From assembly GCA_965369655.1 (NCBI GenBank), contig CBDUQR010000001.1, positions 160,001 through 224,000 on the forward strand: a stretch of 64,000 bases of DNA, given 5' to 3'. Each line of letters opens with the position of its first letter. The stretch's first letter is position 1. Under the pieces are notes generated by a model. It had not been told where the DNA came from and did not search any database. It was given only the letters and a program-made list of their open reading frames with translations. Below, one piece after another: positions 22,024 through 27,333 of this stretch. This stretch comes from an uncultured bacterium (GTDB lineage Bacteria > Zixibacteria > MSB-5A5 > JAABVY01 > JAHJOQ01). Both the position numbers and the translations under genes were made by a program.

Positions 22024-22590
22024 TCAGTTGCCGTCATTGTCCCACGGCCAATCTCCGAAACGAAATCCCCGTGGAGCCTCGCCGAACATCATACAATCAT
22101 CGTTCATCATGCCCATGCCGATTCCATGTCCGCGTGGATGACGCCCGCCTTGTCCGCGGCCACCGAAGGGCATCGTTTCGAGTTTCGCCTTTTGCTCATC
22201 GGTAAGCATGTTGCGGAAAGCGAGTCGCTGATGCACATTGATCTTCTGGATATTGGTTCTGATCGCCGACATCTGATCGATCTTTTTGTCGATCTCGGCC
22301 TTGCCAGCGCCACTCCGCATCAGTTCATGCAGTTCGAGACGAGCAAGCTTAAGATCAGACTTGATCGGGATCAGTTTCTTCTGTGTCTCAAGGCGCATTG
22401 CCCTGGCCTGCTTGATCTGATCAGTTGTCAGCTCGAGCATTTCGATCATGCTCTTGCCCTGACTGAATCCTTTGTGGAAATTACCACCGCCAGGACCTCC
22501 GCGCCCCATGCCTCTCTGTGCATTTGCAGTGACACCTCCGAATACGAATAGCGTAATTACCAGAAGTGTCAGGATTCCTGTCTTTTTCAT
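22024..22590 (-). CDS. Spy/CpxP-family periplasmic protein
   Basis: Signal peptide, Gly/Met-rich segments, LELTTDQ and LTDEQK (LTxxQ) motifs. Confidence 0.85.
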   Translation of the reverse strand: MKKTGILTLLVITLFVFGGVTANAQRGMGRGGPGGGNFHKGFSQGKSMIEMLELTTDQIKQARAMRLETQKKLIPIKSDLKLARLELHELMRSGAGKAEIDKKIDQMSAIRTNIQKINVHQRLAFRNMLTDEQKAKLETMPFGGRGQGGRHPRGHGIGMGMMNDDCMMFGEAPRGFRFGDWPWDNDGN

Positions 22591-22591
22591 T

Positions 22592-23296
22592 TCAGATACC
22601 TCCTTCAGGAGACTTGTAGCCTCCGATTTCGATTTTGTTACACTCTTGTCTTATTCTCTCTCTATGCAATCCGTCGCAGGGGAATTGGGTACTTGATCGA
22701 TTTCCGATATCGTATACGACGCACCCATGATCGGGTGGGAAATCAGGCACCATGCAGGGTGGCGAGTCGATGAAGCCGATCATGCCGATCGGCAGCCTCG
22801 GTCCTCTTCCGACGCCACGGTGTTTTCTCCAGTGACCTTGCTTTTCCCTGTACCTGCCGATCTGACCTTCCAGCATGCCGAGGAGTTTGCGCTTCTGACG
22901 TGGAGTGAGCATCTCCCCTTCACTCATTATGTATCCGATCGCATCTCTATGGAGTCGGTTCTGGACGTTTCCTATAGAATCGACCAGTCCGAATACCAGC
23001 GCAGTGTCGGGCGATTCAGCGTGCATGGCAGCGAAGAGGTTCGACTGGAGTCTGTGCAGATCATCAGCCAGATGTCGTGTGCCTTCAAAAAACTCTCTGC
23101 GGGAATCTCTCACATGTTGCATCTGCTCTTTATCGAGCCCGATCCTGTTGAAGAATCTCAATTCGCGCTCAGCCGGATCACCCGGAGGCATCGGGAGTCC
23201 GCCGTGTGACCATCTCATATAAGCGACTGTGGAAATCGCGGTCAGATTGAATATGGTCAGCAGAACGATGGCAAATATGAACAACTTCTTTTTCAT
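22592..23296 (-). CDS. Periplasmic Spy/ZraP-like (heavy-metal sensor type) protein
   Basis: N-terminal TM, IGLDKEQ and LTPRQK motifs. Confidence 0.78.
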   Translation of the reverse strand: MKKKLFIFAIVLLTIFNLTAISTVAYMRWSHGGLPMPPGDPAERELRFFNRIGLDKEQMQHVRDSRREFFEGTRHLADDLHRLQSNLFAAMHAESPDTALVFGLVDSIGNVQNRLHRDAIGYIMSEGEMLTPRQKRKLLGMLEGQIGRYREKQGHWRKHRGVGRGPRLPIGMIGFIDSPPCMVPDFPPDHGCVVYDIGNRSSTQFPCDGLHRERIRQECNKIEIGGYKSPEGGI

Positions 23297-23784
23297 GATT
23301 CGTCACCTCCTGCGGCATCGTTGCTTGCAGTCAGATCGAAGTAGAGATCGGCGAGTGAACCACCCGGAAGATCCTCGAAACTGTCGAGGCCATAGTCAAC
23401 GAGAAGGTCAGATGACTCGTCAACGGACTCACCGGCTGTGGCTGGGACTACAGCGAATTTGTATCCTGAAAAGACAGCCAGAAGAAGAGCCACAGCAATT
23501 GCCGCTGGCTGGAGCGTCGGGAAAATCCTCTTCCAGATCGGGTCCGGCGATTTTCCGACGATCTCGTCATCGAGCCGCGCTTCGAGTCTGGTCCGGAAGA
23601 ACGGCGATGGTTCGAGTTCCTCAATCTCATCGACACTCGTCCATATCGCCCTGAATTGCTCGACCAGCTCGCGGCAGGAAGCGCACGACTCGATGTGCTG
23701 CCTGATCCGCTCGGTCAACTCATCGTCCAATTGCTGTTCGATGAAGTCTACGAGCTTTTCCTCTATGAGCCTGCAATTTTTCAC
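23293..23784 (-). CDS. ZAS (zf-HC2) membrane anti-sigma factor, module A
   Basis: HIESCASC (HxxxCxxC) followed by one TM helix; downstream of an ECF sigma. Confidence 0.88.
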   Translation of the reverse strand: MKNCRLIEEKLVDFIEQQLDDELTERIRQHIESCASCRELVEQFRAIWTSVDEIEELEPSPFFRTRLEARLDDEIVGKSPDPIWKRIFPTLQPAAIAVALLLAVFSGYKFAVVPATAGESVDESSDLLVDYGLDSFEDLPGGSLADLYFDLTASNDAAGGDES

Positions 23785-23806
23785 ATCAACCTCCGTCTAT
23801 CTCAGA

Positions 23807-23831
23807 GACACTTGCATTCGATAATACTTGC
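23807..23831 (-). promoter_or_regulatory. ECF promoter motif A (GCAAGT-N14-GTGTC) before the anti-sigma
   Basis: Same bipartite motif at 24451-24475 and 26012-26037. Confidence 0.65.
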
Positions 23832-23841
23832 ATGCTTTTTC

Positions 23842-24438
23842 TCACTTCCCGAGCTTCCTGACGAGCGATTTCCGAAGACGTAATTTCGCCCTGTGGATTC
23901 GGGATTCGACAGCCGAGAGCGATATTCCGAGGAATCGGGCGATCTCGACATAGGGCATGCCATCGAGCTTGTGCAGGGAAAACGGCTTCCCGAGTCTCTC
24001 CGGCAACTCGGCGATCGCGTCATAGAGAATCGCAGCGTTCCGCTCGATCTCGAAGCTCCTGTCCGGCCTGTCCGAGTCCCTGCCGGGGATCGATTCTTCG
24101 ATATTGCGGTCTGAATCGGAGGATTCCATCGGGATCAGACCTGGCTTTCTGTTGTCGCGAATATAATTGAGAGACTTGTAATGTGCGATTCGCAGTATCC
24201 ATGTCGAAAGCGATGATTCGCCCCTGAACTTGTGGATATTTCGATAGACCTCGACGAAGACGTCCTGAGCGATGTCCTCAGCGTCCATCTTGTTGCCTGT
24301 CAAGCGATAGCAGAGATTCAGTACTCGACGGGAGAGACGGTCAACAAGAGTGTTGAACGCAGCCTTGTCACCCGACCTGATCTTCTCGATCAGCTCCCAT
24401 TCGTCTAAACGCTTTTCTATCATAAGCCGGATAGACAT
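23842..24438 (-). CDS. ECF RNA polymerase sigma factor, module A (start 24438 or 24423)
   Basis: DAEDIAQDVF, STWILRIA, YVEIA...AVESRIHRAK. Confidence 0.95.
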   Translation of the reverse strand: MSIRLMIEKRLDEWELIEKIRSGDKAAFNTLVDRLSRRVLNLCYRLTGNKMDAEDIAQDVFVEVYRNIHKFRGESSLSTWILRIAHYKSLNYIRDNRKPGLIPMESSDSDRNIEESIPGRDSDRPDRSFEIERNAAILYDAIAELPERLGKPFSLHKLDGMPYVEIARFLGISLSAVESRIHRAKLRLRKSLVRKLGK

Positions 24439-24450
24439 TACTACAGATTC

Positions 24451-24475
24451 GACACGAATAAAAGGCAAAACTTGC
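24451..24475 (-). promoter_or_regulatory. ECF promoter motif A before the sigma gene (autoregulation)
   Basis: GCAAGT-N14-GTGTC. Confidence 0.65.
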
Positions 24476-24602
24476 GGAAATCTCGACAGTCCCGTATATA
24501 AATAATGAAGCTCGTTCGCGGGCGTGATTCAATACCCAATGCGAGAGAGGTATGTTGAATAAGGTAGTTAGTATGGTATATAGAGTGGTCGTTGGAATTC
24601 GC

Positions 24603-24699
24603 CGTCATTGCGAGCGACCGAAGGGAGCGTGGCAATCTCATATTGGGCATCATATTGCATGAACTGAGATCACCACGTCGCTTCACTCCTCGTGATGAC
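24603..24699. repeat. CGTC-tagged REP doublet
   Basis: cgtcattgcgagcgaccgaagggagcgtggcaatctc ... gagatcaccacgtcgcttcactcctcgtgatgacg; same family as 6070-6105. Confidence 0.8.
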
Positions 24700-24748
24700 G
24701 ACAGTTGGCTCTGTAGGTTTTTCAACAAGCCCTAAGAGGGAAGACATC

Positions 24749-25921
24749 ATGCGTATAACAGCATTTATCCTTCTGCAGATCATTTTCACCGTCATGGCTG
24801 CGGCGGGAACTTCAGCCACATTCGAGGAGTCAAAAGCGCTCTCAGCAAAGAGCGGGAAACCGATACTCTTGGAATTCGTGCGCGAGGACTGAGAGTATTG
24901 TGAACTCGCCGCTCGTGAAGCGGAAAGTGAAAAAGATGTCAGGAGTGCCCTAACATATGTTGTACATCAGCCTGTCAATGTTCTTGATGAAACAGGCTCA
25001 CTTCTGGCGGAAGAATACGATGTCGGTACAACATATCCTGTATTCATCCTGACTAATTCACAGGGTGAGATTATCACTCGCTGGACCGGGTACACCGGCG
25101 GAGCACAGGGATTCATCAGGAATCTGCTGAATGCTCTCAAAGATCAGCGGACAATAGCAGAGCGCGTTGAGCAATTCAAGGCTCAGCCGATACTGCTCGA
25201 AGCGGCCGCACTGGCAGGGTTTTTCGCCGAAATCGGCGAGCATCATAAGGCTGTCGAGTATTTCAGACAGGCTGAGTATCTCAGAACCGGATCAGGTGCG
25301 GGATTTTCGTACGACATTTTCAAAAACACAGCCAATGCCGTCTGGAACGAGAAGGCTGAGTATGAGACTGTCTTCCCTGTCGCTGACACTGCGTTGGTTC
25401 TGGGGAAGCGAAATGCTACAAATGTGATCGGTGTTGCAAGGATCATGAGCAGGATGTCGAGGAAATTCGAGCGGACCGACTCTCTGGAAAAATACTTACA
25501 GGTTGGAATCGCTGCCGCGAAAAGCAGTACCGATCCCAAGTTGAACAGATCGCAGTACAGCCTGAGCGCTGATATGGCGCTTCAGATCGACAGCGACACG
25601 GCGCAGGCAATAAGCACAAGAAAGCAGGGTATGGGAGCGAACTGGTCTGACAATCGCGACAAGGCGTTTTCGTTTGCTAAATGGTGTCTCGAGCGGAAGA
25701 TCAACCTTGACGAGTCGGAATCGATTGCGCGCAGGACTGTCAATCTTGTTCACCCAGGTGTGTACAGGGCAAGGGTATTGAGTACGCTTGCGCATATTCT
25801 TGACGCTCGCGGCAAGATCGACGAAGCCATTACGACAGTCGAGCAGGCGATTGAACAAAACCCCGATGATCCATACTATTCCAAACAGTTGAAACGCCTG
25901 AAAGGTGAGACAGATGAATAA
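24749..25921 (+). CDS. Exported thioredoxin-like + TPR protein, probable selenoprotein (Sec at codon 48, UxxC)
   Basis: One frame with a single TGA (24890-24892) in KPILLEFVRED-U-EYC; continues through a YP (cis-Pro-like) strand into ORF 25394..25921; signal peptide; hairpin just 3' of the UGA. Confidence 0.8.
24904..24928 (+). promoter_or_regulatory. Candidate bacterial SECIS element
   Basis: ACT-cg-CCGCT-cgtga-AGCGG-aa-AGT; loop starts 21 nt after the UGA and has G at its second position. Confidence 0.55.
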
Positions 25922-26011
25922 TGGCCGAGCAGGTCGGTGACCCGACACGGACCAAACATCACGCAACTTTGTGCTTTTCTGTCCAGTATTACATATATTA
26001 TAGATACTGCT

Positions 26012-26037
26012 GCAAGTTTGCAGGCATGGTTCGTGTC
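26012..26037 (+). promoter_or_regulatory. ECF promoter motif A before the macA-like operon
   Basis: GCAAGT-N15-GTGTC, 40 nt upstream of the TTG start. Confidence 0.55.
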
Positions 26038-26076
26038 TTGTATGTGGATTCGTGTAACCTGACGGAGGAGTACACA

Positions 26077-27333
26077 TTGAAGAAACCGATATACGCAGTC
26101 ATCGTAGTCGTTGTCATTCTGGTGGGATACTACGGGGTCAATGCCGTTTTCACGGTCTCGACAGAGATCCCGACCGCTCTCGTAACCAGGGGAGAATTCG
26201 TCATCTCGCAGTCTGCGAATGGAAGCGTCGACGCCAAGCGTGCCTACATCATCTCCACGCCACGAGCTCGCGGACTCCAGATCACCTGGCTCGCTCCCGA
26301 AGGATCGATGGTAAACGCGGGCGATCCGGTGGTCAAGTTCGATGCTACCCAGCAGTTGGCCGACCTTGCCGAGAATGAGTCGTCGCTGAAGATCGCCAAT
26401 ACGACGTTAGAGCGCGCCAACCGCGAGTATACTATTCAGGAGAAGCAGCTCAAGCTTGAGTTGAAGAAGGCTCAACGGAACTATGATGAGAAGAAGCATG
26501 AAGCTCCCAAGGTCGCGGAAGAAGCCAGGCTTGAACTTGAACTGGCTGAACTGAATTTCGACGCAAAACTCCAGCAGATCAAGGCGGATGTCGAGAAAGC
26601 CGAACTCCAGGTCCAGCGTGCGCAGGATCGGTTGAATCAGTCGCAGCGAGAAGTCGATCAGACGTCAATCAACGCTCCGATACCCGGTATGGTGGTCTAT
26701 CTCGAAATCTGGAAAGGTGGCACTATGAGCAAAGTCCAGGAAGGAGACTCTCCATGGCCCGGACAGGGGCTTGTCAATCTTCCCGACCTCTCGGAGATGA
26801 TCGTCGATGCCGCAGTGTCGGAAGTTGACGCAAGCATAATTGATTCCGGGCAGCATGTTGTCATCACACTCGACGCATTTCCCGATCAGATATACAGAGG
26901 CGTTGTCGACAAGAAAAGCATTCTTGCTCGACGCAAGGAGCCCGGCTCCAAAATCAATGTCTTCGATGTCGAAATCGACATACTCAATCATGACGAGAGC
27001 GTAAAGCCGGGCATGTCGGCCTCCTGCAAAGTGATTATCGATCGCATCCCTGATGTAATCCAGGTCCCGCTCGAAGCGGTTTTTCAGAAGGAGGGCGAAG
27101 TTGTCGTTTTCCTGAAGAACAATGAAATGCGAGCGGTGCAGGTCGGCAGACGCAACGATATGCTCGTCGAGATTCTGTCTGGCCTCGATGGCGGTGAGCG
27201 CGTATGCTTAGTCGATCCGACTCTCGAGGAGCTTCCCGGGGACAAAGCCACCGAGCCTGAACTGAACAAGGGAAGGCAACTCAACGGCCCCCCGAATAAG
27301 AGACCTCAGGGGGCCAAAGGACGCGGGAAGTAA
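26077..27333 (+). CDS. Efflux periplasmic adaptor (MacA/HlyD-like)
   Basis: TTG start behind GGAGGAG; EGSMVNAGDPVV, coiled coil, INAPIPGMV, KPGMSA, GLDGGERV. Confidence 0.9.
   Translation: MKKPIYAVIVVVVILVGYYGVNAVFTVSTEIPTALVTRGEFVISQSANGSVDAKRAYIISTPRARGLQITWLAPEGSMVNAGDPVVKFDATQQLADLAENESSLKIANTTLERANREYTIQEKQLKLELKKAQRNYDEKKHEAPKVAEEARLELELAELNFDAKLQQIKADVEKAELQVQRAQDRLNQSQREVDQTSINAPIPGMVVYLEIWKGGTMSKVQEGDSPWPGQGLVNLPDLSEMIVDAAVSEVDASIIDSGQHVVITLDAFPDQIYRGVVDKKSILARRKEPGSKINVFDVEIDILNHDESVKPGMSASCKVIIDRIPDVIQVPLEAVFQKEGEVVVFLKNNEMRAVQVGRRNDMLVEILSGLDGGERVCLVDPTLEELPGDKATEPELNKGRQLNGPPNKRPQGAKGRGK

Follow-up and report, generated by a model that had tools for sequence, protein, structure and literature searches.

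The window analyzed here, a stretch of DNA of 64,000 nucleotides, contains a single frame at positions 24692-25921, which ends in TAA and has, when translated with TGA as U, the TGA at 24890-24892 as its sole internal stop. An earlier note on this DNA had treated ORFs 24692..24892 and 25394..25921 as one frame split only by this TGA, and re-translation gave the same result. The ATG at 24749 is likely the start codon, and is preceded by a purine-rich run resembling a ribosome-binding site. The GTG at 24692 was considered as a start, but it sits within a dispersed palindromic repeat and is probably not one. This REP-like repeat (about 100 nt, 24601-24702, -45.7 kcal/mol) lies directly upstream of the gene; it is represented by 83 BLAST pieces in the window genome, 27 of them of at least 60 nt, and its contig depth is very high in sediment metagenomes. 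Within 24300-26300, neither a sigma-70-like promoter nor a plus-strand terminator was found. The features of the locus, all on the plus strand, are as follows.

24734..24743, +, purine-rich ribosome-binding-site-like run AAGAGGGAAG ahead of the ATG at 24749 (direct reading of the letters)
24749..25921, +, predicted exported thioredoxin-TPR selenoprotein gene, 390 aa, ATG to TAA (full-length alignment with homologues)
24749..24808, +, signal-peptide-like N-terminus, about residues 1-20 (charge and hydropathy heuristic; helix 3-20 in the structure model)
24812..25147, +, thioredoxin-fold domain, residues 22-133, with U48-x-x-C51 and Pro97 at the expected cis-Pro position (Pfam, structure match, invariance)
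24890..24892, +, in-frame TGA, putative selenocysteine U48 (TGA at 52, TGC at 21 and TGT at 3 of 76 distinct loci)
24899..24901, +, Cys51, second (resolving) Cys of UxxC (TGC or TGT at 76/76 loci)
24909..24923, +, putative bacterial SECIS upper stem-loop CCGCU-CGUGA-AGCGG, encoding A-A-R-E-A-E: stem 24909-24913, loop 24914-24918, stem 24919-24923 (folding and conservation)
25154..25900, +, TPR-like helical superhelix, residues 136-384, 13 helices (structure model; Pfam TPR matches at 341-374)
25685..25687, +, Cys313, within W-C-L-E-R in the TPR part (conserved at 90% or more in homologue alignment A1, invariant in alignment A2)

The TGA occupies the first Cys position of a thioredoxin CxxC, in the context LLEFVRED-U-EYC. 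Homologous loci were obtained from relatives, from a 201-genome sample of the phylum, from genome contigs (42 loci) and from metagenome contigs (34 loci). In the phylum sample, 83 genomes were matched at 1e-30, some of them through a shorter sister family, and loci were taken from the best 30 matches. Duplicates, six loci without an alignment over the column and 12 sister-family loci were dropped, leaving the 76 distinct loci, which have either TGA (52) or a Cys codon (24) at this column, consistent with the placement of the TGA proposed in the earlier note. Other than one terminal stop, no further stops were present within the matches. Beyond these 76 loci, one family gene (L159) has AxxC. 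Among 241 database proteins, the Sec column is spanned by 124, with CxxC in 120, S in two, W in one and A in one; 117 lack the column, 104 of them beginning at residues 50-99, and some of these may be contig-edge fragments. The records, named "hypothetical" or "tetratricopeptide repeat protein" of Zixibacteria at NCBI, come mostly from that phylum where named. The earlier note had held that standard annotation would miss the gene: the front end and the active site are indeed lost, such that about half of the database records have neither signal peptide nor active site, but the gene itself is usually called as an N-truncated "TPR protein".

The hairpin that the earlier note placed after the TGA lies at the coordinates listed above, with 21 nt separating the UGA from the loop and a G at the second loop position. 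The bSECIS model, as outlined in the text of the 2026 catalogue (PMC13188914), has a loop of 3-9 nt, a stem of 4-16 bp, a G in the first two loop positions, a spacing of 16-37 nt and a minimum free energy of at most -7.5 kcal/mol; the corresponding values here are a 5-nt loop, a 5-bp stem, G second, a spacing of 21 and -10.3 kcal/mol for the 41-nt region, the bare 15-nt stem-loop having -5.7 kcal/mol. On its own, this hairpin is within chance (z -1.4; equally good folding in 20/200 shuffles), and an equal or better hairpin, by our own hairpin rule, was found at 271/4000 random genomic TGA triplets. It is significant because it is conserved in the TGA genes, and not because of folding alone. 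Across 51 distinct TGA sequences, stem pairing amounted to 97.6% of cells, a value reached in 0/500 shuffles and compared with 23-45% in slid controls; for the 24 Cys sequences it was 53.3%, with 140/500 shuffles as high. All five stem pairs were present in 45 of the 52 TGA loci and four pairs in the remaining seven, and five pairs in 1/24 Cys loci. Compensatory changes were observed in the TGA genes, the loop-closing pair being UA in 45, CG in 4 and AU in 2, and the outer pair having changed from CG to UA in 3; such covariation counts are inflated by the kinship of the sequences, and pairs changed on both sides did not go beyond shuffles (107/500). The Arg codon within the hairpin is frozen as CGT (48/52), and the codon for Cys51 is free (36 TGC, 16 TGT). 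Decayed remnants of the hairpin persist in some Cys genes (L068, L070 and L015). A search of Rfam at E up to 1 with positions 24000-26500 yielded no match, and a naive genome-wide scan for UxxC or CxxU followed by a hairpin returned 150 candidates, mostly spurious.

A pseudogene or a sequencing error, with the TGA as a nonsense change, could be proposed on the grounds that the hairpin by itself is not significant and that two relatives (G210 and G211) have frameshifts elsewhere in the gene. Of these two split genes, which may reflect either assembly error or decay, G210 (L158) retains both the UGA and the hairpin, and G211 (L160/L161) has Cys. This explanation is very improbable: the TGA recurs at 52 loci, at identities as low as 35%, the frames after it are intact and the hairpin covaries, and a contig from a second sample of the same study (run X2), spanning 24850-25063, has zero differing letters and thus retains the TGA. 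Contigs of both runs, X1 (which may be the source) and X2, span the TGA without mismatch, and there was no variant at 24890-24892 among the metagenome contig matches listed. The frame has no signs of decay, which the earlier note had named as a refuting sign, beyond one stop in 390 codons, and the structure model is confident.

Likewise, the Sec machinery expected in the genome by the earlier note was all found. In the window genome (99.5% complete), selA (512 bits), selB (329), selD (402) and tRNA-Sec (74) all scored above cut-off; selA, selB and tRNA-Sec, the latter with the anticodon UCA, lie together on one contig (C17), and selD on another (C13). This selD (C13:12519-13445), which has Cys (CACK) rather than Sec, is located within an open frame of 751 codons, where it seems to be fused behind another domain. 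In a sample of 61 genomes of the class, selA was above cut-off in 57 and tRNA-Sec in 58. The possibility that TGA has been reassigned to Trp, Gly or Cys is negligible, the W at the Sec column of one database protein (P0030; probably a database code-4 call) standing against Cys in 120/124 database proteins, selA, selB, selD and dsbD genes without in-frame stops, and a hairpin whose presence tracks TGA. From these sequence comparisons, we predict that the TGA at 24890-24892 is almost certainly read as selenocysteine.

Outside the phylum of the window, matches were obtained in 6/401 genomes of the phylum of Sulfidibacter corallicola (Acidobacteriota). Three of these six have TGA at the identical column, with a 5-of-5 stem and equal spacing (stems assessed by eye, contigs taken as binned), and selA was above cut-off in 5/5 of those checked, the three TGA genomes among them. 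Of 301 genomes in the phylum to which G210 belongs, only G210 itself matched, and this gene copy may be misbinned. Ignavibacteria, which appeared as a further phylum in the titles of nine loci (L041, L051, L056-L060, L066 and L077), were not counted as such, because five loci so titled duplicate genomes of the class of the window (L051, L056, L057/L058, L060 and L077) and the record titles look wrong.

Cys versions of the gene occur in Sec-competent genomes (e.g., G002, G003, G006, G008 and G026). In a tree of 94 proteins, built by a quick method with the Sec column masked and two short rows left out, Sec and Cys forms were interleaved, with 13-14 changes versus 22-32 in shuffled data; the strongly supported branches force only two Sec/Cys changes, and Cys forms are over-represented in the distant reference set. 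A single SECIS design is found in both main clades and in two phyla, and this, together with the decayed remnants in Cys genes, suggests that Sec is ancestral and has repeatedly reverted to Cys. The sister family consists of shorter Trx-TPR proteins (about 280-295 aa), exported or lipoprotein-like, with TGA or Cys at the first CxxC position. TGA was found in 7/12 of its loci (L026-L037, from relatives), with hairpins after the TGA that were strong in two, weak in two and absent in three by our own rule. None of six members scanned passed an NCBIfam cut-off, and the copy in the window genome (G000:C61, L146:1360-2220) has Cys.

The structure of the protein was predicted with AlphaFold from 90 sequences (pLDDT 95.2, pTM 0.89), giving an N-terminal helix, a thioredoxin domain and 13 helices. 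A positively charged N-terminus followed by a hydrophobic stretch was found in 68 of the 73 loci with a start, none of these 68 having a lipobox; these results, obtained with a heuristic rather than with SignalP, support export of the protein by a putative cleavable signal peptide. The architecture put forward in the earlier note, a 390-aa Trx+TPR selenoprotein with a signal-peptide-like N-terminus, is therefore retained, with Sec as a prediction. PF13098 matched the window protein with 28.5 bits (cut-off 27) and with 23.9 bits, below cut-off, in the genome scan. The Trx part aligned best with DsbH 2ju5 in the VIA search (Z 14.7, rmsd 2.3, 110 residues aligned), and also with 2kuc and 3fk8. 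Residue 48 (as Cys), C51 and P97 are invariant in alignment A1, and the domain has the characters of a thioredoxin oxidoreductase: a Trx fold, a (U/C)xxC at a helix start and a conserved Pro. The helical part resembles the superhelices of LGN/Pins, OGT and CTPR (Foldseek and VIA), and no solved structure spanning both domains was found in the structure searches. Cys313 has no partner Cys in the protein.

No conserved partner was identified among 391 ORFs flanking the 76 loci. The largest neighbour cluster comprised 17 loci, in varied positions and on varied strands, and has a dockerin-bearing representative; dockerin-bearing proteins are common in the window genome. A shared operon with the HlyD/MacB/OEP genes that lie downstream was not accepted as a family trait, such a neighbour not being general; the HlyD gene probably starts near 26078 rather than at 25921. 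On the minus strand, at 22024-24468 and divergent from the selenoprotein gene, lie genes for an ECF sigma factor, a zf-HC2 anti-sigma factor and two Spy/CpxP-like (PF13801) proteins, a sigma-factor neighbour being present at 3/76 loci only. Because neighbourhoods vary across the 76 loci, they indicate no client or partner.

We favour the interpretation, to which as a whole we assign a probability of about 0.55, that the gene encodes a selenoprotein of a conserved family, with Sec specified by the hairpin, and that the protein is exported and acts as a DsbD-fed envelope disulfide reductase or isomerase, with the TPR part holding clients. The hairpin 21 nt past the UGA would recruit SelB-bound Sec-tRNA, and Sec would be inserted as the attacking residue of UxxC. 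In the envelope, the selenolate of U48 would attack a client disulfide or an oxidised cysteine, Cys51 would resolve the Sec-client adduct, and the Se-S bond would be re-reduced through the DsbD/CcdA membrane relay. The TPR superhelix would bind the client, perhaps one of the numerous large exported proteins rich in Cys. A thioredoxin fold does not fix the redox direction; support for a reductase or isomerase comes from the closest structural matches of this fold, namely DsbH, 2kuc, 3fk8 and DsbD-gamma. DsbD feeds periplasmic oxidoreductases, as described in the text consulted (PMC3322552), and the window genome has a three-domain DsbD of 635 aa. DsbB and VKOR were not found in the window genome. 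Among 61 relatives, DsbD_TM was detected in 58, DsbB in none, VKOR in two and the DsbA-type PF13462 in three, the last count being a possible underestimate for DsbA, given that PF13462 did not detect the E. coli control. In the two genomes with VKOR (G041 and G060), it is fused to a DsbA-type domain, and neither has a match to the selenoprotein family. The scarcity of DsbB and VKOR in the class sample contrasts with the many Cys-rich exported-type proteins of the window genome. Possible clients include the products of 56 ORFs of this genome with a dockerin-like motif and 2-51 Cys each. Against a coupling to DsbD, other exported thioredoxins in the window genome could accept its electrons, and DsbD/CcdA occurs almost universally in the class, also in genomes that lack the selenoprotein family; Dsb co-occurrence is weak support for this reason.

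A wider proposal extends the favoured interpretation: the undescribed family would be ancestrally Sec-containing, would have kept a single SECIS design in both phyla and would have gone back to Cys several times in Sec-competent genomes. With the sister family, it would be central to an envelope system independent of DsbA/DsbB in which exported Cys-rich proteins of Zixibacteria are folded or repaired, as an exported selenium "chaperedoxin". We regard this as speculative and rather unlikely.

Three other functions were weighed against the reductase or isomerase. The protein might be mainly a redox-protective envelope holdase, an exported counterpart of CnoX whose TPR part keeps hold of unfolded clients, their cysteines being shielded by U48 or C313 as mixed adducts. 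The conserved third Cys313 away from the CxxC and the presence of YbbN (3qou) among the Foldseek matches are in keeping with this function, as is a domain order like that described for CnoX/YbbN in the source consulted (PMC8129009). However, the match to 3qou is weak (TM 0.23, rmsd 22.8), there was no match to TPR_20 (PF14561) or CnoX, an exported protein would have no access to GroEL/DnaK, and the fully conserved U/CxxC points to catalysis; a predominantly holdase role is thus unlikely. Service to one pathway is doubtful as well, whether the reduction and chaperoning of apocytochrome c, as a CcmG plus CcmI/NrfG-like fusion, or the handling of a substrate based on peroxide, sulfur or metal. 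CcmG and CcmI between them supply these two activities, Trx and TPR, and the window genome has four multiheme ORFs, but no ccm or cytochrome family was present among the recurring neighbour clusters (26 representatives scanned), the genome has separate TlpA-like proteins, and the protein lacks a membrane anchor. Finally, an oxidase that introduces disulfides and is re-oxidised by small molecules such as polysulfide would suit a lineage with the low DsbB, VKOR and PF13462 counts and the many Cys-rich exported-type proteins given above; it is quite improbable, given that the model lacks the DsbA-type helical insertion and that Sec lowers the redox potential and favours reduction.

For envelope thiol chemistry, the protein offers a candidate catalyst within a phylum in which DsbB and VKOR were hardly ever detected. 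The family itself, apparently uncatalogued and mainly from Zixibacteria, adds a well-supported set of more than 50 UGA-bearing members with matched Cys relatives, probably missing from current selenoprotein catalogues. Sec and Cys alternate within it in Sec-competent genomes, and its Cys genes have lost the hairpin, which makes the family a clean natural experiment on SECIS constraint and on Sec-to-Cys reversion. The mechanism of Sec insertion is unchanged, UxxC thioredoxin selenoproteins being the commonest kind.

The full-text literature search retrieved no paper on a Trx-TPR selenoprotein family. The 2026 catalogue of 119 prokaryotic families, which includes those of Haft and Tolstoy 2025, describes in its text many Trx-fold UxxC proteins, among them the PF13098 type and several envelope proteins; the words "TPR", "tetratricopeptide" and "Zixibacteria" are absent from that text (PMC13188914). 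Term searches of the available text of deep-Sep (PMC12013277), BSepDB (PMC13326102), SelCysML (PMC13745706) and PMC8318568 gave no TPR selenoprotein. The part of the BSepDB supplement consulted contains at least seven Zixibacteria genomes (PMC13326102), and members of the family could be filed there under the PF13098 family by homology. The nearest catalogued type, compared by its description in Table 1 of the catalogue only (PMC13188914), is the PF13098 UxxC thiol:disulfide interchange selenoprotein, which likewise has PF13098, Sec first in UxxC and a SECIS directly after the UGA; the protein described here differs in being fused to a TPR superhelix of about 250 aa. In NCBIfam (June 2026), no model was above cut-off for the window protein or four homologues. 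Trx7/PDZ (NF041199), TsoB (NF045694) and VPGUxxT (NF041383) are also multi-domain thioredoxin-fold selenoproteins, with weak matches to the Trx part (12-20 bits versus cut-offs of 275-805), but have other motifs (CxxU, UxxxxU and VPGU) and other partner domains. CnoX/YbbN shares the domain order, with thioredoxin at the N-terminus and TPR behind it; it is described in the text consulted as cytoplasmic, with SxxC in E. coli and two five-helix TPR subdomains, and as working with GroEL/DnaK (PMC8129009), whereas the window protein has a signal-peptide-like N-terminus, U/CxxC and a 13-helix superhelix. The DsbH model NF043050 (cut-off 190) gave 14-15 bits in homologues and was not among the matches of the window protein. 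In structure, DsbH of Chlamydia (2ju5), DsbD-gamma, 2kuc, 3fk8 and 2lst were the best matches of residues 22-133 (Z 13.6-14.7, tied with LGN/Pins on the other half), and these proteins have the same exported CxxC oxidoreductase fold, at about 20% identity and without TPR or Sec.
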